This document shows positions 8,913 to 62,920 of a stretch of 64,000 nucleotides of DNA, one piece after another. The DNA comes from Gammaproteobacteria bacterium. GTDB taxonomy: Bacteria > Pseudomonadota > Gammaproteobacteria > Steroidobacterales > Foliamicaceae. The notes under the pieces are model-generated. The model had not been told where the DNA came from. It ran no database searches and saw nothing but the letters and a program-made list of their open reading frames with translations. How positions within the stretch are numbered: position 1 is the first letter of the stretch; each line of letters starts with the position of its first letter. Made by a program: the position numbers and the translations under genes. The DNA is taken from NCBI GenBank assembly GCA_965115835.1, contig OZ220471.1, positions 1,095,037 to 1,159,036 on the forward strand. The letters run 5' to 3'.

Positions 8913-8976
8913 GCGCTGGCGTGAAAGGGCAAATTGGATTCGCCCGAACAACAGTTCTCTTAAGAGAACCGTTGGC

Positions 8977-9048
8977 TATTGTTCCTCTTCTACCCCCTTC
9001 AATAATTCCAAGGGTAGCCAGTGTCTCAACAATGTTGGCAGAAAGGGT
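8977..9048 (-). mobile_element. solo left-end fragment (about 70 bp) of the IS3-family element seen at 758-2347, inverted
   Basis: The reverse complement of 8977-9048 matches 751-822 almost base for base (CCCTTTCTGCCAACATTGTTGAGACAC(C/T)GGCTACCCTTGGAATTATTGAAGGG...). It abuts a truncated IS3-type orfB. Confidence 0.6.
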
Positions 9049-17205: not shown

Positions 17206-17289
17206 AGGCTCTCGGTCAATTTTCTACTTGCAATACGGGTCAGCCATGTGCGCAATCGGTCCCCTCGGGAAAGCTCAGCCTTCCTCCTG

Positions 17290-17715: not shown

Positions 17716-17899
17716 CTCGACCGGCAAAATTGCTTATTCAGCTCAGTGACCGAACCGAGGTGTAGCAGGGTCAGGGTGTTGTCTGGACAGGGCGACATGG
17801 CTCTTGAAAAGCTCAGGCCTGAACACCACATCGTGTTACTACGGCAGGAAATACTTCAGCGTAGTAGCACCAAGCAAACTCGAAAAGGAGGTGATAGCG

Positions 17900-18040
17900 A
17901 TGGCGCGAAAGAAGAATCTTGAAGTAACGGGCAAGAAAGCAGCGTCCGCTGCATCCAAAGTACTTCGCAACCCGAGAGCTAGCAAGGCTGCCAAATCAGC
18001 AGCGGGCTCTGCGCTCACCCAACGGCCAAACAAGAAGTAG
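17900..18040 (+). CDS. small basic protein (46 aa), Lys/Ala-rich
   Basis: Strong RBS AAGGAGGTGA 7 nt upstream of the ATG. Sequence MARKKNLEVTGKKAASAASKVLRNPRASKAAKSAAGSALTQRPNKK. A hairpin follows about 50 nt downstream. Confidence 0.5.
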   Translation: MARKKNLEVTGKKAASAASKVLRNPRASKAAKSAAGSALTQRPNKK

Positions 18041-18091
18041 GCTGGCCTTTCCACTATTGATTGAGCGGATTTTATATTCGCTTTTCTGTCT

Positions 18092-18121
18092 ATGTTCTTG
18101 GCGTGATTGCGCCAAGAACAT
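18092..18121 (+). terminator. perfect 12-bp stem hairpin, possible terminator
   Basis: ATGTTCTTGGCG-TGATTG-CGCCAAGAACAT, followed by AAGTGCTTATTT. The T-tract is weak. Confidence 0.4.
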
Positions 18122-18779
18122 AAGTGCTTATTTGGGCTCTGAAAGGATGGCCACCTTGATCGGTGTAGTGGCGAATCCGCCCTAAGGCGCAAGCTATCAC
18201 GAAAAGGAAGCTGCCGCGGAAAGTATCCGCCCAAGCACTGGCATGCCCATGTTTGGTCAGGCAATGGCAATAAATCGCCCGGTCTCGAAGACCCGGTCGT
18301 CCCCAACGACTCAAGGCGGCGCTGAAAAGTATAGTGCCGAATGGCTCGGGGAAGTGCCTTGGCCGCAGGGTGGCGAAGGCTGCCAAAGCCTTGGTGCAAA
18401 ATGACTTTCACGGTTCCAAAGTCCGTCTTCCTCACCAAGCTGGTCGAGGGTGATGAGCACATTGTCGAGGTCCACAGCCGGGTGGCAGGCACACCCTTCC
18501 GGCCCATCAATGCTGCAATGTTTGTCCGCAGGATCAGAGCAGACCAAAGCTTCAATCATAGCCCTGCTGATATCGGCGCATGTGTGTCGACAAATCATTG
18601 GTATTCCTAAACTAATGTGATCAGAAAGGACACGATTTCGCATCATTTTTCCGCTATGATGGCAACGGGAACATCCCGCAAAGACTCCCTGGAAACCGCC
18701 CCATGACCCGGCATTTTGACAGGATGCGGCGATATTCCGGCAACGACCGCAGCAAGGAGAGCTATCACTGGAAAACCGC

Positions 18780-36098: not shown

Positions 36099-38193
36099 CA
36101 GGGCTGTTTCAAAGTCGTGGTCAGATTATTGGCCTGACAGTTTGTTTGCGGTGTACTGGACATTGAGCGGGTATTCGGTCATGATGGTCGGCGATGGAGA
36201 TGTCAGTTGCCATGTCCGGGTTCGATCTGGCGGAGGTGTCGGTGCGGCCGGTGACGGATCGAGCCGAGTCCGCTCGCTGGGATGTACTGATGTCCCGTCA
36301 CCACTATCTCGGCTTCCGCGGTCTGGTCGGTGGCGGTGTCCGTCAGGTGGCGGAGTTGCCGGACGGGACTTGGCTGGCGCTGCTGGGCTGGCATGCGGGT
36401 TCATTCAAGGTCGGAGTGCGTGATCGTCTGATCGGCTGGACTCGCGAGCAGCAGTTTCGTCGTCTGCGTCTGGTTGCGAACAACACGCGGTTTCTGGTGC
36501 TGCCGGGCGCTCGGATGCCGAATCTCGCCTCGCGGGTTCTCGGCTTGTCGCTGCGTCGGCTGTCGCAGGACATGAAGGCGCAGACCGGCCACCCGGTATT
36601 GCTGGCGGAGACCTTTGTCGATCCGGCCCGGTTCAGCGGGACCTGCTACCGTGCCGCCAACTGGCGGGAGATTGGCAGGACGCGCGGCTATGCGCGGGTT
36701 CCGGGGGGCGGCTGGCGCGAGCACGGCGAGCCGAAGAGGGTGTTGATACGGGAGTTGCGTTCGTCGGCATGTGCGGCCTTGCGTCAGCCGCAGGACGATC
36801 AGGAATGGGGGCTGGTCGCGGCGCCGCCGCGACTGCCGGAGGTCGAGCGTCTCAGGAGCCTGTATGAGTTTCTCCGCCAAGTGCCGGAGTATCGCAAGGC
36901 GCGGGGCATCCGCCACTCGTTGGCGACGATCTTTTCGATTGCTCTGGCGGCGAAGCTGGCGGGGGTGCGCGGGGTGGTGACGATCGGGGAGTTCGCTGCT
37001 CGTCTGACCCAGGCGCAACTGGCGGCGGTGCGGGCGTTCTGGAGTCCGAGCCGCAAGCGCTATGTCGCGCCGTCGCGAACCTCGTTTCACCGAGTGCTGT
37101 CGCAGGTTGCTCCGGAAGTGCTCGACGAAGCGCTGAGCCGCTTCATTGAGCAGAACCGGTCTCCGCACGGCGCGGTTGCGGTTGACGGCAAGGTGACTGT
37201 GGCCGAGTGGATACAGGGCAAGGACAGCGAGCGCGTGCTGGTGGCGGCGGTCGAGCACGGCAGCGGTCTGGTCTGCGGTCAAGAGGCCTGCGACGGGGCC
37301 GGCGGCGAGATTCTGGGTGCGCGCGCGCTGCTGCAGCGTCTCGACATCCGGGATCGGGTGGTGACGCTCGACGCCCTGCACACGCAGCGCAAGACGGCGC
37401 AGTTGATCGCCGAGCGCGGCGGGTTCTACCTGATGACGGTCAAGGGCAACCAGCAGGAACTGCTTGACGGTCTGGCCTCCGGCCTCGACTGGGAGGCCGC
37501 GCAAGTCGCGGCCACCGAGCACGAGACGGTCGAGAAGGGGCATGGACGCATCGAAACCCGCCGCTGTCGGGTGATCCCTCTCGATCTCGTCTCGCCCGAT
37601 TGCGTTGCGATGCCTCACCGCCGCCAAGCCATCCGCATTGAGCGCGAGCGGCATGTCCTGCGCACCCGGCGCACCTCGACCGAAACCGTGTACGGCGTCA
37701 CCTCGCTGGGGCCGGAACAGGCATCGGCGAGTGAATTGCTTCGCCTCAACCGAGGCCATTGGGAGATCGAGAACCGGCTGCACTATGTGCGTGATGTCAG
37801 CTACGACGAAGACCGCAACCGCGTCAAGGCAAAGCGTCTGCGCCGCAACCTCGCCTGCCTCGCAAACGCCGCCATCTCGATCGTGCGACTTGACGAACGA
37901 TTCGACTACATGCCCCAGGCTCACCGCCACTTCGCCGCCCGACAGGGCGACGCCATGCGACAAGTCACACGACGCGGCTTCCGCCGCTGAAACCACGGCA
38001 TCCGACGCACCCACTCTGCCCGAACGGCGTCACGCGACGACGCGGGCCGCCAAAAAGCCCGGAACCGACGGCCCGGAAAGCGCCGGCCTGCCGAAATCCC
38101 CGACTACCCGACGCGCCAGCGGATCACGCACGGACCATCTCGCTGCACCTCGGCGCACGAACTTGGACTCACCACGACTTTGGAATGGTCCTG
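36099..38193 (+). mobile_element. ISAs1-like element copy 3, complete, with a 10-bp target-site duplication
   Basis: The left inverted repeat (IRL) is CAGGGCTGTTTCAAAGTCGTGGTCAG (36099-). The reverse complement of the right inverted repeat (IRR) is CAGGACCATTCCAAAGTCGTGGTGAG (ending 38193). It is flanked by TGGAACCGGT at 36089-36098 and 38194-38203. Confidence 0.85.
36194..37990 (+). CDS. DUF4338-like/ISAs1-family transposase (598 aa)
   Basis: Full-length paralogue of 32700-34496, with the same motifs. Confidence 0.9.
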   Translation: MEMSVAMSGFDLAEVSVRPVTDRAESARWDVLMSRHHYLGFRGLVGGGVRQVAELPDGTWLALLGWHAGSFKVGVRDRLIGWTREQQFRRLRLVANNTRFLVLPGARMPNLASRVLGLSLRRLSQDMKAQTGHPVLLAETFVDPARFSGTCYRAANWREIGRTRGYARVPGGGWREHGEPKRVLIRELRSSACAALRQPQDDQEWGLVAAPPRLPEVERLRSLYEFLRQVPEYRKARGIRHSLATIFSIALAAKLAGVRGVVTIGEFAARLTQAQLAAVRAFWSPSRKRYVAPSRTSFHRVLSQVAPEVLDEALSRFIEQNRSPHGAVAVDGKVTVAEWIQGKDSERVLVAAVEHGSGLVCGQEACDGAGGEILGARALLQRLDIRDRVVTLDALHTQRKTAQLIAERGGFYLMTVKGNQQELLDGLASGLDWEAAQVAATEHETVEKGHGRIETRRCRVIPLDLVSPDCVAMPHRRQAIRIERERHVLRTRRTSTETVYGVTSLGPEQASASELLRLNRGHWEIENRLHYVRDVSYDEDRNRVKAKRLRRNLACLANAAISIVRLDERFDYMPQAHRHFAARQGDAMRQVTRRGFRR

Positions 38194-38211
38194 TGGAACC
38201 GGTACAACCGG

Positions 38212-38240
38212 TTGACAAGTGTCCAAGAATTTGCTATGGG
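38212..38240 (+). promoter_or_regulatory. sigma70-like promoter candidate for the small-protein cassette
   Basis: TTGACA (38212-38217), a 17-nt spacer, then TATGGG (38235-38240). It lies about 39 nt upstream of the ATG at 38279. Confidence 0.4.
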
Positions 38241-38278
38241 TAGAAAATAACACCTTAGATTGGGAGAAGGGGGAGAAG

Positions 38279-38701
38279 ATGAAAAAGTCAAACAAGTGGC
38301 TCCGAGGGGGAGCTGTGGGGCTGCTTTCTGTGGTCTTTCTTTCGGCATCTCCAAAAGCTTTTGCCGATATATGGCGATATCCAGATAGCTATGGTCATTG
38401 TCCAGCAGGGTACTCCCATATTCCTCAAACCGAATTATTCCTTGCGGGGCGTTGGGATGCACCTTCTGTGGGTATGTGCCTTGATAGACAGTATGTTCTT
38501 ACCCGGAACGGTGGGGTGCAGTTGGCGAGTACGCACGGTTGCCATATGATTGCAGATGGCATGGGAGGCATATCCGCAATGTGGGGGCTCGGTGCCGGCA
38601 TAACGGCAATTATTCCTGGTGCGCAAGTGCATGCTGCGGCTTTCGCCTTGATTGGTGCAGGTTTCAGCTTGGCATCGTATTTTGTGCGCCAAAGCTGCTG
38701 A
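38279..38701 (+). CDS. secreted or membrane-anchored Cys-containing protein with a Gly-zipper-like hydrophobic C-terminus (140 aa)
   Basis: RBS GGGGGAG. Signal peptide MKKSNKWLRGGAVGLLSVVFLSASPKAFA|D. C-terminus GMGGISAMWGLGAGITAIIPGAQVHAAAFALIGAGFSLASYF. Low-GC cassette. Confidence 0.55.
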   Translation: MKKSNKWLRGGAVGLLSVVFLSASPKAFADIWRYPDSYGHCPAGYSHIPQTELFLAGRWDAPSVGMCLDRQYVLTRNGGVQLASTHGCHMIADGMGGISAMWGLGAGITAIIPGAQVHAAAFALIGAGFSLASYFVRQSC

Positions 38702-38717
38702 TGAAAAGGAGCACAAG

Positions 38718-38993
38718 ATGAGCTTGAACATTATCCGCAATAACAAGAACAAACTGCTGGGCGGCGTGGCTATTGTGCTTTCGCTTTTTTCCGTGGGCAT
38801 GGCTGCGTACGTCCATATTCTTGGTAAAGGCGATGAATACATGCTCGGGATAATAATATTTTATGCACTGCTGTATATAACGGCATTGTGTATCGGCTTG
38901 GCTATTCGATCCGTTATTTTGAAGCTGAAAAGGGATTTGAAGCAGGATTTGAAGCAGGATTTGATGCGGGATTTACAACAGGAAGCTTCATGA
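38718..38993 (+). CDS. small two-TM protein with a charged repeat tail (91 aa)
   Basis: RBS AAAGGAG. Two hydrophobic helices, then KLKRDLKQDLKQDLMRDLQQEAS. Confidence 0.5.
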   Translation: MSLNIIRNNKNKLLGGVAIVLSLFSVGMAAYVHILGKGDEYMLGIIIFYALLYITALCIGLAIRSVILKLKRDLKQDLKQDLMRDLQQEAS

Positions 38994-39229
38994 ATTTCAC
39001 TTGGCTGGGCCGGGGTTTGGCGATCATTTGGTGGGGTGCAATAGGATACTTGGTCGGTGTCTTCATTCTTGGGATTCTTGGCTACTTTTTCTTGCAGGGG
39101 GAGGTGCATCAGGAGGCCCTGATTAAGTGGGGGAGGCTTATAACTGCTATCCCTTACCTTGTTGCCCTTTCTTTTGCATGGTTCTTTGCTGGCCGTCGAT
39201 ACTGGAAGCAGTCAAAAAGACAACCGTGA
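38990..39229 (+). CDS. small two-TM protein with a basic C-terminus (79 aa)
   Basis: The ATG overlaps the previous stop (ATGA). Sequence GLAIIWWGAIGYLVGVFILGILGYFFL ... LITAIPYLVALSFAWFFAGRRYWKQSKRQP. Confidence 0.5.
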   Translation: MNFTWLGRGLAIIWWGAIGYLVGVFILGILGYFFLQGEVHQEALIKWGRLITAIPYLVALSFAWFFAGRRYWKQSKRQP

Positions 39230-39655
39230 ATCGCCATAACCTTAGGATGACGGAAAACGTCAAGAGACCAGTCGGGACGCCTGCCCGCACAATGCGTCTG
39301 GGATCGTAGATGTCCTTTCCGTTCATCAATAACCGGAAGATGATGGCGACAGGCGGCAACCGCAATTGTGGCAGCTTCGCCATCGCCTAGTGAGGGGCTT
39401 CCCGACACGAGGGTTTCGTAAACCACATGCTCGCGTTCATTCAGGGTAGTGAGTTGAACTTTGCCCGACGCGGCCAAATCTTGGATAAACTGATACTCAC
39501 CGTTGTTCCTACCCGTCTCATGCTCAAGCTCCACTGCTACAATTTCCGTCACCAGCATGAAGGTTTATCAGGACACTCGTGTCGATGATCAGCGGGCTCG
39601 AGTCATCAGCTAGGAAGCTTGAGTAAGTATCCGTCTCGCTATCCTTGAGCACGGT
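39154..39655 (-). pseudogene. PIN-domain (VapC-like) gene, frameshifted
   Basis: One frame upstream of 39558 reads ...PLIIDTSVLINLHAG (PIN N-terminal Asp). After a frame change the ORF continues ...GDGEAATIAVAACRHHLPVIDERKG. The C-terminal third looks degenerate. Confidence 0.45.
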
Positions 39656-40130
39656 TAGAGTTGATCTTCTCGGCTACAGATTATGGACGATCCGAATCCG
39701 TTTCAAGAGATTGGCACCTATCGACTGCTTCTGACGAGCTGGTTGAGCAAACGAGGCTGAGAATCGCTCATTGCTTTGTTGATGCTGGTTATGCATAAGC
39801 GCGTTTGACCTGCCCCCGACGATGGATCCAGTTTCAATGTTGGTGCATTGACGATTTCTCTGCCATGCTGGGCGAGATGAGTCAGTGCCGCGAGCAGCGA
39901 GTCATCACCGTGTTGATCGTTATCGGGACGATTGCGACAGACACGGCCCAACGGCGACAAAAGTCGCCATGAGGCGCCGCACAGCGCGGCAATTGGCGTC
40001 GAACGCGGTGTTGCAATGGTGTTGACTGTCGGGACAGACGCGGGCAGCAGCATTTGCTTCATCTCCGCAAATAATTGATATAAAGGTTCTTTTCCCGCCT
40101 GAAAAAGTTGCGTATTCCCTGCACGGAAGC

Positions 40131-42452: not shown

Positions 42453-43022
42453 TTTTGACGGCCCGACTCCGGTCGGGGCCGAGGACGCTACAACCGCAAC
42501 AAGCTCCACAAAGGTAGCTGGCTCCGCCCCCTCCGAAGCGATTGGCAGCGCACACTCAATCGGTAAAATCACCGGCGCCGTCGGACTGTGCGATCAATCA
42601 GGCGGCGACTTCCACGGCCCGATGGAACCATTGCTCTTGGGTAAACGGTTACAGCGAGCATTTGGGCGACACACCTCTGCTTGAGTGCGCCTCGTTTGGA
42701 ATGAATCTGCTTGCGGGTTGCTTACGATAGCAAGAATCAATTTGTTAAAGCGCTGTTATTCAAGGTATATTTTATGCTATCTCTTACTCCGGGCTGGGAG
42801 GCCCTGTATCGGGCCATCGCCTTCGGCCACCACCCAACCGAACTGGCGCCCTTCGACACCTCCTGAACCCATCGCCGTGGTCGGGTGTGCGACGAGCGGG
42901 TTCTTCGGGGAAACAGCGTAGCCAAACCACTTATCCGGCGCCGGCCGGAGGGGTAGCCTTCCCCAAGCGATCCGCCAACCGGCCATCCGCGCCAGAATGC
43001 CGCCCCATCAGCACCGCAAAAT

Positions 43023-43040
43023 GGCTTGGCGGGAATTGCT
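43023..43040. mobile_element. solo right terminus of the MITE-like element
   Basis: GCTTGGCGGGAATTGCTG is identical to 60303-60320. The receptor-like coding homology begins immediately after it. Confidence 0.45.
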
Positions 43041-44788
43041 GTTATCCACTGAGGGAGGTGCAGGAAGGGCGCATACCCTGGGCCTACACGGAAAGCGAAA
43101 ACAAGCAGCGCAACTATGCGGCGGGTTTCTACTGGCAGCTTGCGGACAAGCACCAGTTGCAACTGGACCTCTCGCTCTCGGAGTCCAGGAAACGCGGTTG
43201 GCAGATAAGAACCTCCTGGCGGAGGAATCGCGGGGACCCGAGCGCCGAGACTTTCTACCGGGCGCTTGACAGTTCGGACCCCGATGTTGCACTGAACCTG
43301 TTTGGCGACGGCACGGTGCAGGATTCGGCGTTCGAGGAATTGTTCACCAATACCTTGGGGCCCACTCTGGGCTTTACGGACATCACGACTATCAAGCCCT
43401 ATGTACGCGGCGAAATCTTCGAAATATGGGCCGGCCCGGCCCGTTACGTCATCGGCGGGGAGTCCATGACACGCAAGGTATACAGCTATTCCGAATTCTG
43501 GGGCCAGGAAGGGCAGGAGCGCGCAGACAATTTTGAAAGTATTGAAGGCGTCAGGGAGCCCACTCAGAAAAATACCGCCTGGTACGTCGAGTTGGCGTTG
43601 CCGCTCGCAAGCCCGGACAACTCCTGGCCCGGACTGCACTCCTTGCAGCTCAGCCTGCAGCTCCGGCGGGACAGCCACGACTATGAAGGCGCTGCCGGAG
43701 GCACTGACGGGAGAAGCGTTCCGGCGCCGCGCTGGGCGTGGATTGATGGCGGCTGGGTCCAAGTTCCGTATTCTCGGTGGGAAAATCAAGGCGACCCCAA
43801 CATCGTCGGGCTGACCAAGAGCGACAACACTTGGCGGGCCGGTCTTTTTTATCAACCGGTGGAAGAGCTTACGGTGCGGGCTTCGCAGACGAGGACATTC
43901 AAGCCGCCCAAGTACAACTCGCTCTTCGATATAAGCAACCCCTTGACAAGACCGGGATACTTCGTCGACCCGTACAACCCGGATGGACCGACGGAAATTG
44001 TCCGTCCACCCACTACCCGCTCGTCTTTCAATTCGGACATCAAGTCCGAAACCGGACGCACCATACGGATTGCAGCGGACTGGACGCCGCCAGCAGTGCC
44101 CGGCCTGACGCTCTCGGCAGACTGGTCGAAGGCCGTGCAAAAGGACAAGATCCATTACTCGACCAGCATTCTGTATGACCATCCGGAAATTGGCTTCCGC
44201 CTGCCGGTGATCGTAAAACGGGATGCCGATGGACGGATCACGCAGATAAACTCCTTCGACATCAATCTGGCAGAAAAAGTAAACGAGCTGCTGATCCTTT
44301 ATGGGGAGTATTCCTTTCAAACGAGGCTGGGAGATTTCAATCCAAGGCTGACCTATACGCGAGTGCTGGACGAGTACTTCACCGTGGTACCGGGTAGCCC
44401 TGAAGTTGACCGCGTCGGTACAATCAAGGGAAGCGACAAGTACAAGTTGCAAGGGTCGCTCACGTGGCTCTGGAACCGATTTGCTGCCGATCTGTTCGTC
44501 GATTACAGGCCCAGCTACGAGAACAACCGCACGGGGATCTGCTTTGAAGTGGTTGGACGCTGCTCGCGACTCTACGAAAACAGGCCTACTATTGAGGTGG
44601 ACTCCCTGACGACGGTCGATCTTACGCTGACATACCAGTTCGACAACGGCCTGCGGTTGCGCGGCGGCGGACGCAATATCCTTTACGAAAAGTCCTACAC
44701 TGTCTTCGAGGGCAGACTCAACTACGACCCAACCCGCTGGAATGCCCGGGGCCGGGTGTTCTTCCTCGAATTACAGTACGAGATGTAA
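43041..44788 (+). pseudogene. TonB-dependent-receptor-like outer-membrane beta-barrel, 5'-truncated (no signal peptide, TonB box or plug)
   Basis: Alternating beta-strand pattern with a TBDR-like C-terminus ...GLRLRGGGRNILYEKSY...GRVFFLELQYEM. The ORF's first approximately 50 codons (42887-43040) are not receptor-like. Confidence 0.55.
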
Positions 44789-44853
44789 TAATGAGAAGCC
44801 TTTAACCCCCAGGCTCCTGCCCACACGGCGCCGGACGCGCGGGATTTTCTGAC

Positions 44854-44895
44854 AAGCCCTCCAAGCCGCAAAATGGCTTGGAGGGCTTGCTTTTT
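44854..44895 (+). terminator. rho-independent terminator
   Basis: AAGCCCTCCAAGCC-GCAAAAT-GGCTTGGAGGGCTT (14-bp perfect stem), followed by GCTTTTT. Confidence 0.8.
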
Positions 44896-45402: not shown

Positions 45403-45744
45403 TCAAATGTCGGTAGGCATGGGTATGGGGTTGTCGGCGGAAAGTGGTTCGGAGGGGGTAAATTCCTCCAGGACTTCCTCGCTCTGCAGGGCTTCTTCGA
45501 TACGGGCCAGATCCTCATCAATCGAAACGGCTTCGGCGGAGAGTTCGGGGATGGCGGGAGGCGAAGCGTCCTGATTCCCGGAAGCTTCTGTCTCTGCTCC
45601 CGCCTCCACCCCCTCTCCGATTTGCTCCTCCTCTCCGGCAGGGTCCGGCTGCCGGAAGCCCAGCCATCCGGCCACCTCTGCGGCAGCCCATGTCAGGCTC
45701 AGCCCCAAGCCGATGACGGCGGCGACGCCGATCACTTTCTTCAT
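45403..45744 (-). CDS. small secreted/anchored acidic protein (113 aa), last gene of the operon
   Basis: The ATG overlaps the upstream stop (ATGA). Hydrophobic N-terminus MKKVIGVAAVIGLGLSLTWAAA, then a Glu/Asp-rich tail. Confidence 0.6.
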   Translation of the reverse strand: MKKVIGVAAVIGLGLSLTWAAAEVAGWLGFRQPDPAGEEEQIGEGVEAGAETEASGNQDASPPAIPELSAEAVSIDEDLARIEEALQSEEVLEEFTPSEPLSADNPIPMPTDI

Positions 45745-48173
45745 GGCTGTTTCCTTCCTTCCGGATCCGATTGTTCCGCATAGCGCGCCAAGCGAAATCC
45801 TACATCGATGCGTTCTTTGTCGCCAGCTTCGCGAAACGCCCAGCGCAACTCCCGCAGCGTGCCGTGCAGCCAGCTCGATCCGCGAATGACGTACAGCCGT
45901 CCCTCCGCCGCGCCGCGCGGGTCCACCTCGGTGTCGGGATAGAGCGTGTCGGCGCCGTAAAAGTCGCCCGTCCATTCGGCAACGTTGCCGCCCAGATCGA
46001 AAAGTCCGGCCGGATTGGCCGGGAACGACCCCACCGGGGCGGTAAACGGAAAATTGTCGTTATAGGCGGTGACCACGGGGATTCCCAGGCCGCTGGCCGA
46101 CTGGTCGGCGTAATTCCCGGAACGCGGCGCCGGCGGCATCCGCTCGCCCCACGGATAGCGCGAATCGCCCGCCCCGCCGCCATGACGCGCCGCCCACACC
46201 CATTCCGCTTCCGTGGGCAGACGATAGCCGATGCCCGACTCATCGACCGGCTGCAGGCGACCTGCCCGACTGACGTACTGGAGCGGCAGGTTCTCCTGCG
46301 AGCTCAGCCAGTTGCAGAAGGCGGCCGCGGCCTGCCAATCGAGGTTCACCGCAGGACTGCTGTCCGCCGCCAGAGACCGGAAGCGTTCCGCGCCCGAGGT
46401 ATGTGTGGGCCGGAATGCGCGAAACTCGCGGTTGGTCACCTCGGTGACGCCCAGGTAGTAGCGCCTGTCCAGCCGCACCCTGCGCCGAACCTCGTTATTG
46501 CGCCATCCCTGACTGCCGCGTTGCGATCCCATCTCGAACTCGCCGGGAAACAGCATGACCAGTTTCCCGCCCAGCGAGTTCTCGATCTCTCTCGGCTGCG
46601 CAGCCAACCACGCCTGAACGGGAGTCAGCATTTCCACAACGACTTCCTGGGGATACGCGGGCTGCGGAACAATTTCACGCGACACATCCACATAACCTTC
46701 CTGCTTCAGTTCGAGAAGGTGCCCGATGGACGGCAGCGCCAGTTCGAGCGGTGTTCGCCCGCTCTCCCGGCCGTTGACAAATACCGCGACTCCGGCAGGA
46801 AGACTCACCACACGAACCTTGCCGAGGCGCGGCTCCAGGCGAACATCCAGCGTGTACTTCTCGCCCCGTCCCAGCGTCACGGATCGTTCCTGCGATTCAT
46901 GCCCGGCAAGAGACAGCAACACGCGATGCGCGCGGTCCGGGCTGACCTCCACCGTTGCCGGCGCGGCCCCCCGAAAGTCGCCGTCCACGGTAATGCTGGC
47001 GCCCGGCGGCTCGGTGGTAACGCGCAGCACTCCGGCAGCCGGCTGCAAACGAATGTCGGCCAGAGTTCGGTCCGCGCCTGCAACAACGGTCAACTCCTCG
47101 CGGTGGGTCGCAAATCCGGGCTTGGAAAAGGTCAGGATCTGCTTGCCGGAAAGCAGGTCCAATGTTGCCGGAGTAAGGCCCAACACCTCGCCCCCCGCAC
47201 CGACCTCGGCCCCGGAAGGCGTGCTGCTCACGGAAATGGCCGCCCAGTCCGGTTCGAGCTCGGCGGAAAAGGACTCCCGCTCGCCGCCTCCCCGAACGGC
47301 CAACACGGTTCTCAGCGCCTTGTAGCGGGGCGCGGACACATCCATCGCATAGGTTCCCGGCGCCAGCCGGAATTCCTCTCCCGGCCCGAAGACGCCTTCG
47401 ACGCCTTCCAGGGAAATCCGGGCGTCTTCCACGGCGTCCACCACTACGCGTGCGGGCAAAAGTTGCATGGCGAAGCGAAATTCCTCGCCGCCCGTGCCCA
47501 GCACCTCGATGGATTCGTCCAGCGGGTAGTAACGCGGCAACTCCGCCCGGACCCGATATTTTCCAGGCCACAACAGATAACGGCTTCCTGCATGAGGCGT
47601 GGGAAGAAAGGCCTCGACCCGGACTTTCGCGTCTTCAGGCTCCACCTCCACCAGCACGCCCCCGGCGGTAAACACGAACAGTGCGCACACCCCCAGGACG
47701 ACCAGAGCCGCTCCCAGGACCGCGCGCAGCCACAACCGGCGCACATTCCGGCGCGCGCCTGCGGCGGTTCCCCGGGCGCGCCGCAGGGGAATGGACGCCG
47801 CGGACTCCTCCTCCGCGACAAGCTCCGGGGGGCGCGTATCCCAGGCCCGGGCCGAATAGCGCACGACGAGCTTGAGCCCCTCGGGATCCAGCGACTCCAC
47901 AGCCACTTCCACGCCGGCGATCGACAAGCGGTCGTCCGCCTTGAGCCAACGGGCGCCGGCGACTGCCTCGCCGTTCAATTGCAGCCCGGAGACGCCCGCG
48001 TAGCACTGCACCAGCGCCCGCCCTTCGAGGAGATTGATGCTGGCGGCCGGCGCCGCCGCAGTTGGGCCGGGAAGGCGGATATGGGCGCTGGCGCCGCTGC
48101 CCAGCAGCACCGGCAGTTCGTTCGCCTCCAGTTCGCGCTCGCCCTCGGGCAGCGCAATCACTACCCGCGTCAT
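45741..48173 (-). CDS. FHA domain - TM - PEGA repeats - FGE-sulfatase (SUMF1-like) domain protein (810 aa)
   Basis: FHA-like N-terminus (LPVLLGSGASAHIRL...LQLNGEAV...LSIAGVEV). TM segment LRAVLGAALVVLGVCALFVF. Several PEGA-like units (for example VSSTPSGAEVGAGGEVLGLTPATL, TTEPPGASITVDGDFRGAAP, VSLPAGVAVFVNGRESGRTPLEL). C-terminal FGE/SUMF1 motifs: YYLGVTEVTNREFRAF, YRLPTEAEWVWAAR, GLFDLGGNVAEWT, RGSSW, GFRLAR. Confidence 0.9.
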   Translation of the reverse strand: MTRVVIALPEGERELEANELPVLLGSGASAHIRLPGPTAAAPAASINLLEGRALVQCYAGVSGLQLNGEAVAGARWLKADDRLSIAGVEVAVESLDPEGLKLVVRYSARAWDTRPPELVAEEESAASIPLRRARGTAAGARRNVRRLWLRAVLGAALVVLGVCALFVFTAGGVLVEVEPEDAKVRVEAFLPTPHAGSRYLLWPGKYRVRAELPRYYPLDESIEVLGTGGEEFRFAMQLLPARVVVDAVEDARISLEGVEGVFGPGEEFRLAPGTYAMDVSAPRYKALRTVLAVRGGGERESFSAELEPDWAAISVSSTPSGAEVGAGGEVLGLTPATLDLLSGKQILTFSKPGFATHREELTVVAGADRTLADIRLQPAAGVLRVTTEPPGASITVDGDFRGAAPATVEVSPDRAHRVLLSLAGHESQERSVTLGRGEKYTLDVRLEPRLGKVRVVSLPAGVAVFVNGRESGRTPLELALPSIGHLLELKQEGYVDVSREIVPQPAYPQEVVVEMLTPVQAWLAAQPREIENSLGGKLVMLFPGEFEMGSQRGSQGWRNNEVRRRVRLDRRYYLGVTEVTNREFRAFRPTHTSGAERFRSLAADSSPAVNLDWQAAAAFCNWLSSQENLPLQYVSRAGRLQPVDESGIGYRLPTEAEWVWAARHGGGAGDSRYPWGERMPPAPRSGNYADQSASGLGIPVVTAYNDNFPFTAPVGSFPANPAGLFDLGGNVAEWTGDFYGADTLYPDTEVDPRGAAEGRLYVIRGSSWLHGTLRELRWAFREAGDKERIDVGFRLARYAEQSDPEGRKQP

Positions 48174-50473
48174 CAGATAGGTTGTGTGCAGATCAGAACC
48201 ACGGGAGCGGACAAGCCTTGCGGAGGCACGACAAATTCCCGGCGCACATCCCGGAACCCGTCGCGTTGGCCAACCGCCGTGTAGGCGCCGGGCCTTAACT
48301 CGAGGACCCGATCACTGAAGCTTCCCAACCGGCCCACGTGAAAAATCGTGACCTTGGTGAAACCATCGGACTGCAAACGCACCGGCGCGGGCGTGGCGGC
48401 CACCGTCAGGACCCGGTCCAGGCGCTCGATCTGACCGTTCAGTCGGGGGCCGGGCTCGGCAATGCTGCCGGCTTGTTCCAACAGCCCCCGGCCCTGCTCC
48501 CAGGCGTCGTTGCGATTCAGCCCCTGCGCATTGGCAATGGTCTGTTCCAGGGCATCGTCCAGGCGCGCCCGGCTCTCCGCCTCGGCCAAACCCTGCCGGG
48601 CGGAAACGATGCTGGCCTCGATCTTGAGCATTTCACGGTAGTGGTTCGCCACGGAACGCCACTCTTCGCGAAAACGGGCGGCTACCGCCGCTGCCTGCAA
48701 TTCCGCCAGCCGCTGGCCTCTTTCCTCCAGTTGCAGGGCAGCCAGAGCCTCCACCGGCGCCGGATCGTCGGGACGTTGTCTGTTGGCCGCCTCGAAGGCC
48801 TCGCGGGCGGCGGCGAGATCGCCCTCCCCCATGGCTGTGTGCCCGCGTGACATCCGGGAACCGAACAGGCGGGCCTCGAGGTCCGCGTTGACCGCCGCCA
48901 GGGCCTGACGGGCGGACTGCCGCATGGGATCCAGTTTCAGCACTTGCCGCCAGGCGTCGCGCTGCGCCTCGAGACGGCCTTCGCGGGCAAGCGCGCGCGC
49001 TTCGTCCACCGCCTGCATGATTTCCGGCAGTTTTGCAGCTCTTCGCCGGGCTGTCTCAACATCCGGGTCGGCTTCTCCCAGGAGAATGCCTGCCTTCTCC
49101 AGTTCGGCCAGGGCAACAGCCTGATCGCCGCTTTCCAAGGCCTCCTGCGCCGCTTCCAGAGCCTTTTGGCCAATGTCCGGCGCTTGCTCGCGCAACGGAC
49201 GCAGCAAATCCGCAACCTTGCGGTAGCGGGCCTGCGCATCGGGATATTCACGCTTTCGATAGTGTTCGTCGGCCGCCTGCTCCTGCGCAAGGGCCTGTTC
49301 CCACACCCCGCCCGACCACAGCGACGGCTGCAGGGACGCCAGATAGTTCCGGTCCCTGAGCATGTCGCCCATGGTCACATCCGCGGCATTGCGCTGCGCC
49401 TTCAGCAATTCCAGGTCTACCTTTGGCGGCTCGGCCTGCGGAACTGTTGCCCGGGGGAGCGGCCGGGCAGCGGCCCTGTCCTGCGCAAGACGGGGAAGAA
49501 AGGCAAACAATGCCACGGCCACCGCCAGCATCAAGCCTCCCAGGGCGTACGCCAGACCCGCCGGTACGCCGCGCCGCTGTTGCAGAGTGGCAGGTTGCCC
49601 GCCGTTCGCGGCCCGAGTCCGGGCGACAATCGCCGCACTCGGCGCCGGCTCCGCCGGGGAGTCCTTGAGTATCTCCTCCAATGTGCTGCGCACGGCCTGA
49701 AGCGTCACCGGACGCCGGGAAGCGTCCGACGCGAGCATCGACAAGGTCAATTCGCCCAGGGCTTCGGGCAGGCGCGGCATTCCGGGGGGCGCCGCGAGCG
49801 GTTCGATCTTCCCCACCCAAACACATTCTTGGTCGAGGTGCGTGGCGTCCGGCGGGCGGCCGCAAAACTGCTGGTGAAAAATACCGCCCAAGGCATAGAT
49901 GTCATCGCCGGGTTCGGCAGGCTGGCCGTCGAGAAGCTGCGGGCTCATATAGGTAAACGAACCCCCGGGTCGCCGGATGCGGTCGTCCCCGGCGGCATCG
50001 CGGACCCGCGCGGCGCCGAAATCGGTCAAGCGCGCCGCTCCGTGTTCATCCAGCAGGATATTCTCCGGCTTGAGGTCGCCATGCGCCACGCCCTTGCGGT
50101 GCGCGTACGCCAATGCATCGCAGATGGGCAAGAGCCGCCTTGCGCTCTCGCCCCAAGGCCGGCTTGCGCTTTCCCCCAGATGGCCTCCGGGCATCACCGG
50201 CATCGTGAAGAAAGCCCCGCCCTCGTCCGGGAAGAATTCCTCGGGACGCAAGATGTCCGGGTGAACCAGCGACTGCGCGATGGAAAACTCGCGCCGGAAC
50301 AGTTCCTGGCGCGCGGGATCGCGCGCGAACTCGCCCGCCAGCCTCTTCAGGGCCACCTCACGCGCCTGGGAAATATCCTCGGCCAGCCACACTTCGCCCA
50401 ACCCGCCCTTGCCGAGCAGGCGCAAACACCGAAATCGGGACGCCAGCAGTTGGCCCTCGCGAGGCGGGTTCAT
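48173..50473 (-). CDS. Hanks-type Ser/Thr protein kinase - TM - TPR-like helical repeats - C-terminal beta domain (766 aa)
   Basis: LGKGGLGEVWLAED (Gly loop), VALKRL, HRKGVAHGDLKPENILL, LTDFGAARV. TM segment GLAYALGGLMLAVAVALFAFL. A long Ala/Glu/Arg helical region follows. The stop shares one nucleotide with the downstream ATG (TGATG). Confidence 0.9.
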   Translation of the reverse strand: MNPPREGQLLASRFRCLRLLGKGGLGEVWLAEDISQAREVALKRLAGEFARDPARQELFRREFSIAQSLVHPDILRPEEFFPDEGGAFFTMPVMPGGHLGESASRPWGESARRLLPICDALAYAHRKGVAHGDLKPENILLDEHGAARLTDFGAARVRDAAGDDRIRRPGGSFTYMSPQLLDGQPAEPGDDIYALGGIFHQQFCGRPPDATHLDQECVWVGKIEPLAAPPGMPRLPEALGELTLSMLASDASRRPVTLQAVRSTLEEILKDSPAEPAPSAAIVARTRAANGGQPATLQQRRGVPAGLAYALGGLMLAVAVALFAFLPRLAQDRAAARPLPRATVPQAEPPKVDLELLKAQRNAADVTMGDMLRDRNYLASLQPSLWSGGVWEQALAQEQAADEHYRKREYPDAQARYRKVADLLRPLREQAPDIGQKALEAAQEALESGDQAVALAELEKAGILLGEADPDVETARRRAAKLPEIMQAVDEARALAREGRLEAQRDAWRQVLKLDPMRQSARQALAAVNADLEARLFGSRMSRGHTAMGEGDLAAAREAFEAANRQRPDDPAPVEALAALQLEERGQRLAELQAAAVAARFREEWRSVANHYREMLKIEASIVSARQGLAEAESRARLDDALEQTIANAQGLNRNDAWEQGRGLLEQAGSIAEPGPRLNGQIERLDRVLTVAATPAPVRLQSDGFTKVTIFHVGRLGSFSDRVLELRPGAYTAVGQRDGFRDVRREFVVPPQGLSAPVVLICTQPI

Positions 50474-50541
50474 GGTTTTGTTGCGAAGCTGGGGTTTCCT
50501 GCCTTCAGGAACGCGGCAGGGAAGTTCCCTTCGGGATTCCC

Positions 50542-51795
50542 TTACGAGCCTTCCTCGACCGGCGGCTCGATTTCGCCCGTCTCGCGAGCGTAGATTTCAC
50601 GCAGCAGGCGGCGCCATTCCCGAAACCGTTCCTCTGCGGATCCGGTCAGCCGCCGGGTCTGGCCCTCCAGTTCCACCACCATGGGCTCGGCCTCGGCATC
50701 GAAGGATTCACCTGCCTCCCGCAGGGTCTCCGCATGCAGCTTGGCTTCCTCGCGGTCACTCAGCCCGGACTGTATGCCCATGATGCCAGCCTGCACCATC
50801 GTGCCGGTAACCGCCGCCTTGTCGCCGCCGGCGGATTCGTAGGCAATCGCACCGAGAATTCCCAGCACGCCCAGCAGCATGCGGGTGTTCGCCGCCCCGC
50901 GCATCTCCTCGTAACTCATGCGCCCTTCGCGCGCCGTGCCCCGCCAGTCGGTATAGGGCGCGCGCAAGCCGTTGTACAAGTTCGCGTAGTGCTCGTTTAT
51001 GGCGTCGATCAGCGCGTATTCGCGCTCGCGCACCGCGCGCATCCGGCTTACCATCGGCTCGTCCGCCGCCGGAAGCCGCCGGAGTTGATACTGGCCGTCC
51101 TTGTCCCACGCCAGATAGCCATCGAACGCCTGCGGCGCCAGGCTCTTTCCGTAACGCAGATCGCCGACATCCCGAATCCGCTGCAACTCCGCAGCGCCAA
51201 GCTGGGCGCGAAACTGCAGCAGGTCGTTGGCGATCTGGTTATAAACGTTTTCGTAGGGGTCCCGAGGGAGATTGCTACTTTGATGGGGGGCGACATAAGC
51301 CATTTCGCTCACCATCATTTCGTAGCTCTTGTTGAACCACTCGCGGGCGGAAGAGTCCCAGGCGGCCACCCGCAACTTCACGCTGTAGCCGTCCGACGCT
51401 TCGATCCGCCCCGATACCACGAGATCCACAATCGGGCTGAACTCGGGCAATACGCTCACCGCACCCCAGTAGCCCGACGCTTCCAGTCTGGTCTTGAGGT
51501 GATAGGGCATCAAGCGCGCCTCGGCGCGGCGGATTTCCGGAAAGATCCATTTTTCGTGGAGCTGCTGGTCGCTGGCGTCTTCCGGAAGACCTGCGTCGAA
51601 CACCAATATGCCCACATTGAGCAATGCTTCCCGGGCAATGTCCGTTTCCGCACGCTCCAGCTTGACCTCGGTGTACTGGACTTCGCGAGTCGATGTGCAG
51701 GCCGCCAGCAACACCGTGCAAGCGACCAGCCCCAACAATCGGTTGATCCTGTTCACTTCGCCTTGATTCCCATGTGCTTGCGATACTCGTCCCAA
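50542..51795 (-). CDS. putative lipoprotein (about 400 aa)
   Basis: Lipobox ...LLGLVACTVLLAAC|TS. An alternative GTG start at 51756 overlaps the upstream TGA (GTGA) and gives a canonical 20-aa signal. There is a Gly-rich hydrophobic segment near the C-terminus (LLGVLGILGAIAYESAGG...AGIMGIQSGL). Confidence 0.7.
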   Translation of the reverse strand: MGRVSQAHGNQGEVNRINRLLGLVACTVLLAACTSTREVQYTEVKLERAETDIAREALLNVGILVFDAGLPEDASDQQLHEKWIFPEIRRAEARLMPYHLKTRLEASGYWGAVSVLPEFSPIVDLVVSGRIEASDGYSVKLRVAAWDSSAREWFNKSYEMMVSEMAYVAPHQSSNLPRDPYENVYNQIANDLLQFRAQLGAAELQRIRDVGDLRYGKSLAPQAFDGYLAWDKDGQYQLRRLPAADEPMVSRMRAVREREYALIDAINEHYANLYNGLRAPYTDWRGTAREGRMSYEEMRGAANTRMLLGVLGILGAIAYESAGGDKAAVTGTMVQAGIMGIQSGLSDREEAKLHAETLREAGESFDAEAEPMVVELEGQTRRLTGSAEERFREWRRLLREIYARETGEIEPPVEEGS

Positions 51796-53192
51796 AGCGC
51801 CTTGCGAAGGCGCGGATCCTCTTCCTGTTCCGCCGCTTCGCGAATCTGCCGCGCCACCTGATCTTCCCTGCCCGACGCCTTGGCGATATCTTCAGGAATC
51901 TCGACCTTGGAAGCGGGCTGATCTCCATTTCCAGGGCTCCCCCCGCCCTCACCGGAGGACATGCCGCCGCCGTTGTTTCCTCCGCCGCCCTGGCCGCTGC
52001 CGGAGTTCCTTCCGCCATCCTGACCGGCGTCGTTGCCCGCTCCCATGCCTCCGTCTCCCCCGCCGCCCGACATGCTGGGAATGATCACCATGGGGCCGTC
52101 GGAGCCTCCGGGGCCGCCGGAAGTTCCAGCCATGCCGCCCGCACTGCCTGCGCCGGCGGCCGTTCCCTGACCGGAGGAAGCCATCGCGCCGCGCTCGCGA
52201 GCGATTTCGCGATCGTATCCCTCCATGGATTCACGCAGAACGCCCTCGAGGTCGCCGCCACTGCCGGAAGCGCCAGCGCCGCTCGCCCCGCCTGCTTGCC
52301 CGCCGCCAATGCCGCCGCCGGTTCCCACGGAACCCTGCGTACCGCCGCGAGAACCCGACGCGCCGCCGACCGAACCCGGAAGACCGCCGCCGCGGGAACC
52401 CGACGCGCCGCCGACCGAACCCGGAAGACCGCTGCCGCGAGAACCCGACGCACCGCCGACCGAACCCGGAAGACCGCCGCTGCGAGAACCCGACGCGCCG
52501 CCGACCGAACCCGGAAGACCGCTGCCGCGAGAACCCGACGCGCCGCCGCCAGAACCCGGAAGACCGCTGCCGCGAGAACCCGACGCACCGCCGACCGAAC
52601 CCGGAAGACCGCCGCCGCGGGAACCCGACGCGCCGCCGACCGAACCCGGAAGACCGCTGCCGCGAGAACCCGACGCGCCGCCGCCAGAACCCGGAAGACC
52701 GCTGCCGCGAGAACCCGACGCGCCGCCGCCCGAACCCGGAAGACCGCCGCCGCGGGAACCCGACGCGCCGCCGACCGAACCCGGAAGACCGCCGCTGCGA
52801 GAACCCGACGCGCCGCCGACCGAACCCGGAAGACCGCCGCTGCGAGAACCCGACGCGCCGCCGACCGAACCCGGAAGACCGCCGCTGCGAGAACCCGACG
52901 CGCCGCCGACCGAACCCGGAAGACCGCCGCTGCGAGAACCCGACGCGCCGCCGACCGAACCCGGAAGACCGCTGCCGCGAGAACCCGACGCGCCGCCGCC
53001 AGAACCCGGAAGACCGCCGCTGCGAGAACCCGACGCGCCGCCGGAGGCGCCGGAACTCCCTCCGGGCGACGGCATGGACACCGGGGGGCCGCCCGACGGG
53101 GAGGACACGCCGCCGGTAGTCTGACAACCTGCGGAAAACAGCGCAAGCGTGAACGCCAGGAAAACACTCGAAACGCCAATGACCGGTTTCAT
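51753..53192 (-). CDS. Gly/Ser-rich repeat lipoprotein (479 aa), first gene of the operon
   Basis: Signal plus lipobox MKPVIGVSSVFLAFTLALFSAGC|QT. About 16 tandem 15-aa units GGASGSR(S/G)(G/S)GLPGS(V/G). Non-repetitive charged C-terminus ...DQVARQIREAAEQEEDPRLRKALWDEYRKHMGIKAK. Coupled to the next gene. Confidence 0.7.
   Translation of the reverse strand: MKPVIGVSSVFLAFTLALFSAGCQTTGGVSSPSGGPPVSMPSPGGSSGASGGASGSRSGGLPGSGGGASGSRGSGLPGSVGGASGSRSGGLPGSVGGASGSRSGGLPGSVGGASGSRSGGLPGSVGGASGSRSGGLPGSVGGASGSRGGGLPGSGGGASGSRGSGLPGSGGGASGSRGSGLPGSVGGASGSRGGGLPGSVGGASGSRGSGLPGSGGGASGSRGSGLPGSVGGASGSRSGGLPGSVGGASGSRGSGLPGSVGGASGSRGGGLPGSVGGASGSRGGTQGSVGTGGGIGGGQAGGASGAGASGSGGDLEGVLRESMEGYDREIARERGAMASSGQGTAAGAGSAGGMAGTSGGPGGSDGPMVIIPSMSGGGGDGGMGAGNDAGQDGGRNSGSGQGGGGNNGGGMSSGEGGGSPGNGDQPASKVEIPEDIAKASGREDQVARQIREAAEQEEDPRLRKALWDEYRKHMGIKAK
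52343..53045. repeat. 45-bp tandem repeat, about 15.6 copies (coding)
   Basis: The unit GAACCCGACGCGCCGCCGACCGAACCCGGAAGACCGCC(G/T)C(C/T)GCG(G/A) repeats head to tail, with a few point variants per unit. Confidence 0.9.
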
Positions 53193-53583
53193 TTCGATGA
53201 ACCTAATCGAACTCTATGGAACCAAGCATACCACCGTCCCCGAAAGGCGAGGCCTTGCCTGTGTGGATGCGCGAATCAGCTCTCGCGTCGCTTCTTGTAC
53301 TCCTCGTAATTCAGGCGGCCGGAGCGAACCGCAGGAGGATAGTGACCGTATCTCTCCTGTTCGCGCTCCTTCAGGTGCCGTTTGGCGAGCCAGGTAAACA
53401 GGTTGAACAGCCCGGCAATAACCAATGCGACAAGCAGGCCGATGTTGTCGAGAAGGAAGCTGTACATTGTCGCAAACCCAAGCGCTTCGCAAAACCCGAA
53501 GGGCGTTTCCAACGCCTTTATTTTACGCAGAATGCGGTAGTACTATCAAAGCCATGATTCCGTCGGTCCTGCATCGGAAATAA

Positions 53584-54102
53584 ATGCGCACACGCTACCG
53601 GAACCTGCTGGTCGCCGCTTTTCTGGCAGGCGTTCTCGTTCTCGTGTGGCGCCTCCAGGGCAGCGAAGCCACCACCACGATCCTGCTGCTGACATCCGCC
53701 GAACGCCAAAAAGGCGATTCGGCGTCCCTGAGCGCCGCCGGACTGGCCCGCTCCGAATCCCTGAGCCGTCTGGCGGGAAACCTTGCCGCCCCGGACCAAC
53801 TCGCCGCGATCCTGAGTGCCGGCGGCGAGCCCGAGCGTGAGACCGTCCGCATGCTGGCCAAACGGCTTGAAAGACCGATTTCCGATGTGTTGATCGAGGA
53901 TCCTGCCGCCTTCGCCCGGGGGCTCGCAAGGCGATATCGCGGCAAGGTCGTGGTGATTGTGGCCAGCACCAGTCTGGCAGCAGCCCTGCTGGCGGAACTG
54001 GACGGCGCTGCGCTGGAACGGGCCCAGTTCGGACCGGGCCGCCTTCACCTTGTCAACCTGCCTTCCTTCGGCCAGCCGCGCACTCTGGCGCTCAACTACT
54101 GA
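53584..54102 (+). CDS. hypothetical membrane-anchored protein (172 aa)
   Basis: N-terminal TM segment NLLVAAFLAGVLVLVW. No catalytic motif recognised. Confidence 0.45.
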   Translation: MRTRYRNLLVAAFLAGVLVLVWRLQGSEATTTILLLTSAERQKGDSASLSAAGLARSESLSRLAGNLAAPDQLAAILSAGGEPERETVRMLAKRLERPISDVLIEDPAAFARGLARRYRGKVVVIVASTSLAAALLAELDGAALERAQFGPGRLHLVNLPSFGQPRTLALNY

Positions 54103-62661: not shown

Positions 62662-62920
62662 CCGAAACCTCCCCTGCTGTTTCCTCATCAAGTCACGATT
62701 CCTGCGTTCGCATCATTTCCGCATCTACGCCTACCCTATCACAAAAATCAGCGCTGCATCGCCACATCGCGCACGCCCGCCAACGCGGCGAGACAGCGGC
62801 CAAAATAGTGGTGCGTGAAGTTCGCATCTGCACAGTTCGCGCGCACAATGCCCACTTGGCCAGTTGCGCGCTGACCTCCGGCTGTTGCCTGCACCGCACG
62901 CGCTACGCGGCGCGCACTGA

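Follow-up and report, generated by a model that had tools for sequence, protein, structure and literature searches.

The 64,000-nucleotide stretch of gammaproteobacterial DNA considered here (contig OZ220471.1 of assembly GCA_965115835.1, positions 1,095,037 to 1,159,036; hereafter "the window") carries on its minus strand, at 45403-53192, an operon of five genes, g1 to g5, that appears to be one half of a larger envelope system. In more distant relatives the same genes, which define families A, B, K, P and S, are followed by four others, named M, F, V and W, that encode a TolQ-like protein, an FHA-domain protein and two related vWA proteins. Judged by their sequences and their order, the nine genes are tightly co-inherited and form a single, uncharacterised envelope system in many uncultured marine and soil Gammaproteobacteria. 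The explanation favored here, with a probability of about 0.5, is that g1-g5 and a small upstream gene, g0, make up the sensor or scaffold half of this system, and that this half controls or partners a motor encoded by the other. The five genes and the only gap between them are as follows.

51753-53192, minus strand: g1 (family A), a Gly/Ser-rich lipoprotein of 479 amino acids
50542-51756, minus strand: g2 (family B), a lipoprotein of 404 amino acids with a GTG start
50474-50541, minus strand: intergenic gap of 68 nt between g2 and g3, the sole non-overlapping junction (the family median for the B-K gap is 19 nt)
48173-50473, minus strand: g3 (family K), a Hanks Ser/Thr kinase with a single membrane helix
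45741-48173, minus strand: g4 (family P), with an FHA-like domain, a membrane helix, five PEGA repeats and an FGE domain
45403-45744, minus strand: g5 (family S), an acidic protein of 113 amino acids with a signal peptide

All five open reading frames (ORFs) are intact and have a high third-position guanine-cytosine (GC) content, and the ORF list of the window confirms their number, order, strand and coordinates as given in a first-pass annotation of this DNA. That annotation also described the operon as translationally coupled. The overlaps can be read from the sequence as GTGA between g1 and g2, TGATG (one base) between g3 and g4, and ATGA between g4 and g5. Since g2 and g3 stand 68 nt apart, coupling is true of three of the four junctions.

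The strongest evidence for a functional unit comes from the conservation of gene order. Loci were fetched around homologues of g2, 18 of them from genomes and 80 from metagenomes. The order A-B-K-P, usually followed by S, is found at all 18 genome loci and at every metagenome locus that is long enough, and it holds down to 35-53% identity, with unrelated flanking genes. This recurrence places the gene order far beyond chance and bears out the earlier treatment of the genes as one unit. Outside a clade of sponge symbionts, every locus that is long enough continues past S into M-F-V-W, and at about 30 loci from more distant relatives all nine genes are contiguous in the ancestral order A-B-K-P-S-M-F-V-W. 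Apart from the B-K gap given above, the median gaps are 17 nt for K-P, -4 nt for P-S, 23 nt for S-M, 16 nt for M-F, -11 nt for F-V and 10 nt for V-W.

The four additional genes point to a motor and to a reader of phosphorylation. The M protein (265 amino acids) matches the MotA/ExbB/TolQ family of channel proteins at 6e-10. The F protein, of about 459 amino acids, ends in an FHA domain (Pfam 8e-10; the FHA domain of Rv0020c 1e-8) that keeps the motifs GVSRxHC and NG, while its N-terminal 330 or so residues give many weak matches to Hsp70 nucleotide-binding domains (E 0.16-0.7; gene at 17078-18457 of locus L019), so an Hsp70-like identity for this part is only a lead. The paralogous proteins V (365 amino acids) and W (331 amino acids) both contain a membrane helix at the N-terminus, a coiled coil and a vWA domain, and in both families an Asp in the membrane helix (F-L-D) and the DxSxS metal ion-dependent adhesion site (MIDAS) motif of the vWA domain are invariant.

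This combination recalls a recently described kind of motor. TolQ-like genes without TolR or ExbD have been found paired with heterologous vWA proteins that carry a proton-binding Asp in a transpore helix, and such pairs have been proposed on bioinformatic grounds, with no function given, to be force transducers driven by the proton motive force (PMC12204202, Mol Biol Evol 2025). M, V and W fit these TPH-vWA motors by description at about 30 loci, in having a TolQ/ExbB-like gene, a pair of vWA proteins, the Asp and no TolR or ExbD, and it is likewise by description that they are matched to the published Idiomarina family. These features are borne by the related loci only, the motor genes not being in this window. 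In the text of PMC12204202 the word "kinase" is absent and the sole word starting with "FHA" is FhaC, which is unrelated; lipoprotein and PEGA-FGE partners were not among the terms searched for.

The kinase, g3, has the following parts.

49688-50425, minus strand: cytoplasmic Hanks kinase domain, amino acids 17-262 (Pkinase, PF00069, 4.1e-35)
49493-49558, minus strand: membrane helix, amino acids 306-327 (hydropathy 2.29 over 19 residues)
48407-49492, minus strand: periplasmic helical region, TPR-like, amino acids 328-689, conserved in the family alignment
48176-48406, minus strand: C-terminal PEGA-like beta domain of 77 residues, amino acids 690-766, strongly conserved

In the family alignment Lys43 is present in 55 of 56 sequences, and the catalytic Asp, the Asn and the Asp of the DFG motif are each present in all 56. 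The HRD motif reads HRD in 32 sequences and HGD in the other 24, which include the clade of the window, making g3 a non-RD kinase. With all of the checked catalytic residues intact, g3 is predicted to be a catalytically competent Hanks kinase. Its C-terminal domain aligns with PEGA units 1 and 4 of g4 over 31-38 columns (hhalign probability 93-94%, E ~1e-7).

The second membrane protein, g4, is more elaborate.

47859-48173, minus strand: cytoplasmic FHA-fold domain, amino acids 1-105, with a degenerate phosphothreonine pocket
47826-47837, minus strand: cytoplasmic linker motif Thr113-x-Pro-Pro, a candidate phospho-acceptor site
47661-47723, minus strand: membrane helix, amino acids 151-171 (hydropathy 2.6), preceded by an Arg-rich segment
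46608-47660, minus strand: five periplasmic PEGA-like repeats, amino acids 172-522 (Pfam PF08308, 5.3e-43)
45783-46562, minus strand: periplasmic FGE/SUMF1-fold domain, amino acids 538-797 (PF03781, 6.3e-43)

The N-terminal domain of g4 was called an FHA domain in the first-pass annotation, and as a statement about fold this holds, although the Pfam FHA model does not match it even at E=10 and the N-terminus has no NCBIfam match either. A homologue search with residues 1-257 returned no more than seven proteins, all close and partial, a result probably due to low-complexity words crowding the list of candidates, and the N-terminal orthologues were therefore taken by translation from the fetched loci. 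A profile of 26 of these N-termini finds the FHA domains of Ki-67 (1.5e-5), KIF13B (0.0017), Rv1747 (0.014) and Rv0020c (0.025). In addition, an AlphaFold2 (AF2) model with a mean predicted local distance difference test (pLDDT) score of 69, built on a shallow alignment of eight sequences, gave in Foldseek only FHA domains among the matches checked, with a probability of about 1 and including Ki-67, CT664, EssC, Rv0020c and PscD. From profile and model together, the assignment of an FHA fold to the predicted domain stands.

What does not stand is the extension of the general property of FHA domains, the binding of phosphothreonine, to this one. Among 50 family members the pocket keeps the conserved Gly in 50 and the Asn in 49, while the Arg is found in none, the Ser of SxxH in two and the His in none; the position after the conserved Gly is Ser, Thr or a gap in place of Arg. 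Since the Arg, Ser and His that contact the phosphate are absent, phosphothreonine binding by g4 is unlikely. The most conserved cytoplasmic feature of g4 outside its domains is the linker motif, in which Thr113 is present in 50 of 50 sequences, Pro115 in 49 and Pro116 in 50.

The periplasmic part of g4 agrees better with what had been said of it. Four or five PEGA repeats had been counted; Pfam finds three stretches above threshold, and all five units match unit 4 with hhalign probabilities of 96.6-99%, so the number is five. The FGE domain aligns over its full length to bacterial and human FGE (PDB chains at ~3e-18). Whether its catalytic cysteines were retained had been left to be checked, and they are not: where the Streptomyces coelicolor enzyme reads ...YLCHDSYC..., g4 reads ...SWL-HGT-L..., with a residue other than Cys at both sites of C-x4-C, and the pair is absent from all 51 of the aligned FGE-domain sequences. 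An FGE domain without this pair is a non-catalytic module and fits a binding or scaffold role. Its best match among curated families is GldK/PorK at 7.6e-29, which at 101 bits lies below the TIGR03525 cut-off of 350, and PorK chains in the PDB (~5e-15) rank behind the catalytic FGE structures. Non-catalytic FGE proteins of bacteria, including PEGA-FGE and kinase-FGE forms, have been noted before, and one of them oligomerises in the periplasm (PMC5915273).

The remaining three proteins of the operon carry export signals. The start of g1, MKPVIGVSSVFLAFTLALFSAG-C23, contains the lipobox LFSAG-C23 of a lipoprotein signal, and that of g2 at the GTG codon at 51756, MNRINRLLGLVACTVLLAA-C20, contains the lipobox LLAA-C20, whose Cys is invariant across the g2 family; both lipoboxes were read directly from the sequence. 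With the GTG start, g2 overlaps g1 by GTGA and acquires a positively charged n-region such as its orthologues have, and an alternative TTG start with a 43-nt overlap is less likely. The residue after the lipid-modified Cys is not Asp in either protein (Gln in A, Thr in B), and both lipoproteins are probably located in the outer membrane.

The g1 protein is 35% Gly and 19% Ser, and much of it is a disordered spacer rich in these two residues. The repeat in this spacer is as follows.

52342-53043, minus strand: 45-bp tandem repeat in g1, 15.6 copies with 94% matches, encoding 15 units of GGASGSR(G/S)(G/S)GLPGS(G/V)

The spacers of g1 orthologues use other units, such as GGGGSM, GSSGGSM and GSPSASV (loci L001, L002 and L016), and these differences suggest that the spacer is fast-evolving. 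Its length probably varies across relatives as well: typical full-length orthologues have about 250-420 amino acids, and the 479 of g1 in the window exceed every one measured. The C-terminal helical segment (IPEDI...EDQVARQIREAA...LWDEYRKHMG) is conserved in 60 loci. No Pfam or NCBIfam model matches g1.

The g2 protein belongs to a large family. More than 900 close homologues are known, all without an assigned name or Pfam domain; most come from Gammaproteobacteria that are uncultured, with sponge metagenomes and "Candidatus Foliamicus" among the sources, and a profile search returns 1563 representative clusters (537 with E<=1e-30), again without a Pfam domain. The AF2 model has a pLDDT of 64.5 overall and is confident for residues 40-230. 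The alpha/beta domain at its N-terminus is similar in fold to the TolB N-domain, PelC and LptE (Foldseek E 3e-3 to 3e-2), and the C-terminal part is helical with a conserved glycine-rich hydrophobic stretch. The g5 protein has a signal peptide, is acidic and ends in ...PMPTDI; orthologues are found in 47 loci, most terminating in P[ST]DI, and g5 has no match in Pfam or NCBIfam.

A short motif is shared by families A and S. The pattern [IVL]-P-x-D-[IV] occurs within the last 90 residues of 55 of 58 A proteins, where it sits just before the conserved C-terminal helix, and P-[ST]-D-I is the usual C-terminus of the S proteins. The motif could be a docking motif.

Taken together, the topology of these proteins, with the kinase and FHA-like domains in the cytoplasm, the TPR, PEGA and FGE parts in the periplasm, and two lipoproteins, fits a complex that spans the envelope. 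This complex would be assembled from A, B, S and those portions of K and P that lie in the periplasm, would reach from the inner to the outer membrane, and would report the state of the envelope, or a ligand, to the kinase and thereby gate K. A sensing or scaffolding complex at the envelope had been proposed for these genes from the start; the topology and the lipoproteins fit that proposal, which was made on one half of the ancestral cluster alone. Because the second half encodes a motor and an FHA protein that keeps SRxH and Asn, it changes the likely output of the kinase. K would phosphorylate a cytoplasmic threonine, for which Thr113-x-Pro-Pro in the linker of P is the best candidate, and it is F whose FHA domain would read the phosphothreonine, rather than P with its degenerate one. 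This reading by F would then couple the signal to the proton-driven M/V/W motor as the output. The FHA-like domain of P would serve as a phospho-independent, constitutive docking module, as in YscD/PscD and EssC. Confidence in Thr113 as the specific acceptor is much less than in this general picture. A fully specified version, a trans-envelope machine in which a TolQ-like/TPH-vWA motor of 5:2 type is switched by a relay running from the lipoprotein/PEGA/FGE sensor through the Hanks kinase and the Thr of TxPP to the Hsp70-like FHA protein, is tentative and should be held as a possibility only.

Several of these steps have precedents. The closest working analogue of the cluster is the TagQRST-PpkA-Fha1-PppA pathway of the H1 type VI secretion system (T6SS) in Pseudomonas aeruginosa, in which an outer-membrane lipoprotein and an FGE-fold protein stand upstream of the kinase, and an FHA protein reads the mark and controls the assembly of an envelope machine. 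Unlike that pathway, the cluster is without T6SS genes, the TagST ABC pair and PppA; in g4 the FGE domain shares one polypeptide with PEGA repeats, a membrane helix and a degenerate FHA domain. The two are likened by part list. COG1262 is the FGE-family COG, and in its periplasmic part PpkA is unlike g3, whose own is TPR/PEGA-like. TagR is listed as COG1262, and the pathway shows that activation of a transmembrane Hanks kinase can come from a lipoprotein together with a periplasmic COG1262 protein; for the reading of phosphothreonine, too, PpkA and Fha1 of Pseudomonas offer an analogy (PMC13584744). A further analogy for such reading is that of phosphothreonine-bearing TssL by Fha in Agrobacterium. 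No TagR model is found among the NCBIfam matches of g4.

Other likenesses concern single parts. The ring lipoprotein PorK/GldK of type IX secretion shares with g4, as do OCTIN, TagR and PvdO, an FGE/SUMF1 fold without catalytic cysteines, used as a periplasmic structural or binding module. Unlike PorK/GldK, g4 is an inner-membrane protein with an N-terminal cytoplasmic domain, and the loci contain no PorL, PorM, PorN or other Por genes. YscD/PscD of type III secretion and EssC of type VII secretion also begin with a cytoplasmic FHA fold that lacks the phosphothreonine residues and continue, like g4, through a membrane helix into repeated domains in the periplasm or outside the cell; the cluster itself contains no secretion-system genes, and the likeness is one of fold and architecture only. 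The cluster thus combines known kinds of component, namely control of an envelope machine by a Hanks kinase and FHA protein and an orphan motor of the 5:2 type. The combination itself was not found described in the literature, in keeping with the earlier statement that no characterised system has such a composition, and it is a real possibility that the nine genes together encode a new machine.

A number of observations weigh against the sensor-and-motor explanation. One of them is the FHA domain of F, which has Ser or Thr and not Arg after the conserved Gly, making phosphothreonine binding plausible, not assured. The cluster lacks a PP2C phosphatase. The fold match of B is marginal (E ~3e-3, with a template modelling score of ~0.2 over the whole model), and the TPR matches of g3 are weak (TPR_14 at 0.0069 and faint TPR families on orthologues). 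A further point is the fate of the cluster in the sponge-symbiont clade. In these genomes (L101-L113, for example L101 at 5639-9990, and L112) ppx and ppk lie on the other strand between S and M, and in one of them a gene for a TonB-dependent receptor is inserted there as well. A histidine-phosphatase-like gene, encoding 172-178 amino acids, immediately precedes M and shares its strand, M-F-V follow, and W has been lost. In the window itself, tblastn and tblastx searches of the full 64 kb find none of M, F, V, W, ppk and ppx. The insertions, the loss of W and the absence from the window suggest that the two halves may be functionally separable.

The window offers some indication of where the halves came to be parted. 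The operon is bounded downstream by a convergent gene that is itself incomplete.

42887-44889, plus strand: truncated ORF of a TonB-dependent receptor, the downstream boundary of the operon

This ORF lacks the first ~390 residues, including the plug, and aligns only to residues 393-976 of a full-length relative; it is followed by a strong hairpin with a 16-bp stem (44853-44889). A rearrangement breakpoint probably lies near 43.0 kb, and a join made in the assembly of a metagenome-assembled genome is a further conceivable source of the truncation. Beyond the breakpoint, the ORFs at 38-42 kb give nothing informative in Pfam. The stretch 38000-40000 has a GC content of 0.52, against ~0.65, and ORFs without a Pfam match, and beside it a DDE transposase at 36194-37990 has an N-terminal region that matches DruA of Druantia at 6.5e-18. 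The transposase and the low-GC stretch could represent mobile DNA that is connected with the rearrangement. With five genes intact and M, F, V and W absent from the window, what is seen here is the sensor half, the partner half having moved or been lost. In this genome the M-F-V half would then have been parted from the sensor half by rearrangement and, if present, would act from elsewhere on the chromosome.

The same absence is what gives some weight to a self-contained module of five genes, in which the FHA domain of g4 binds a phosphothreonine that the kinase makes on itself or on a partner and so recruits the PEGA-FGE protein to it. The five genes are intact without M, F, V and W nearby, g4 does have the FHA fold, and its gene is translationally coupled to that of the kinase. 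However, the pocket counts given above show the binding residues to be missing across the whole family, the Pfam FHA model fails on g4 even at the most permissive threshold used, and an FHA protein that keeps SRxH and Asn is encoded downstream in the same operon at every distant locus that is long enough. This explanation is accordingly unlikely. A serious alternative, which overlaps with the favored explanation and is somewhat more probable than the self-contained module while still improbable, is that the system is primarily structural: a trans-envelope machine for export, anchoring or surface motility, with a periplasmic ring of the PEGA-FGE protein like that of PorK/GldK, lipoproteins under the outer membrane and a motor that powers it, the kinase merely tuning assembly. 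The motor genes do belong to the ancestral operon, GldK/PorK is the best curated-family match of the FGE domain, and the fold likeness of B is to PelC, LptE and the TolB N-domain. In g4 an FHA-like domain is followed by a membrane helix and periplasmic repeats, much as in YscD/PscD and EssC, and periplasmic oligomerisation is on record for one non-catalytic FGE protein (PMC5915273). Arguing the other way, the cluster has no conserved outer-membrane barrel, secretin, ATPase or cargo gene, the GldK score is far under its cut-off, and g4 is not a lipoprotein.

Two further explanations are very improbable. The parts shared with the TagQ/TagR-PpkA-Fha pathway, namely one or more lipoproteins, a periplasmic FGE-fold domain of COG1262 type, a transmembrane Hanks kinase and an FHA domain, could make the cluster a remote, fused version of that T6SS regulator, yet no T6SS core, TagS/TagT ABC pair or PppA was noted among the scanned ORFs of the window or the listed genes of loci L019, L020 and L101-L113, and it is the motor and vWA genes that are conserved as neighbours. 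A system for anti-phage defence with the Ser/Thr kinase at its centre was considered as well, as the kinase domain matches the PADLOC models PD-T4-6 (2e-49) and mad6 (8e-47) and FGE domains serve as binding modules in conflict systems (PMC7159879). These PADLOC matches are confined to the generic kinase domain, the seven other proteins scanned gave only a marginal match to JetC (0.0065, on the coiled coil of V), and throughout a whole clade the genes keep a syntenic place on the chromosome beside housekeeping genes, being highly conserved and neither patchy nor fast-evolving. The defence explanation was rejected, PADLOC yielding generic kinase matches only.

Upstream of the operon lie two smaller elements that the first-pass annotation of the operon did not include.

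53276-53467, minus strand: g0, the gene next upstream of g1, for a protein of 63 amino acids that has a single membrane helix
53520-53549, minus strand: promoter-like site upstream of g0, TTGATA and TAAAAT with an 18-nt spacer, matching the consensus at 10 of 12 positions

A g0 gene with 59-66% identity is found upstream of g1 among close sponge-clade loci, and it was not found at the two more distant loci checked, L015 and L019; it has no Pfam match. The promoter-like site is a consensus match only, and two such sites were seen where about one is expected by chance. On the plus strand, a divergent ORF at 53584-54102 encodes 172 amino acids, has a membrane helix at its N-terminus and matches nothing in Pfam, and it adjoins the operon in all of the sponge-clade loci with 71-79% identity. 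Elsewhere in the window, a minus-strand gene at 60568-62691 encodes a protein of 707 amino acids with an unusual pairing of FG-GAP repeats and a C-terminal domain like the N-terminal domain of DsbD. An Rfam scan of the whole 64 kb gave no match.

The significance of this cluster lies in part in its size and spread. The g2 family alone comprises more than 1500 representative clusters without a Pfam domain, and at more than 50 sampled loci it stands beside the same kinase and PEGA-FGE genes, all of which points to a large and widespread envelope system. If the favored explanation is true, the TolQ-like/vWA motors would gain an input, in the form of a Hanks kinase, as well as candidate partners at the outer membrane, and Thr113-x-Pro-Pro would be a concrete site at which to test the connection. 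The cluster would also be the second case, after TagQR-PpkA-Fha of the T6SS, in which a lipoprotein and an FGE-fold sensor feed a transmembrane kinase. In the sponge symbionts, the split of the cluster and the loss of one of the vWA paralogues provide a natural experiment on which parts of the system can function by themselves.

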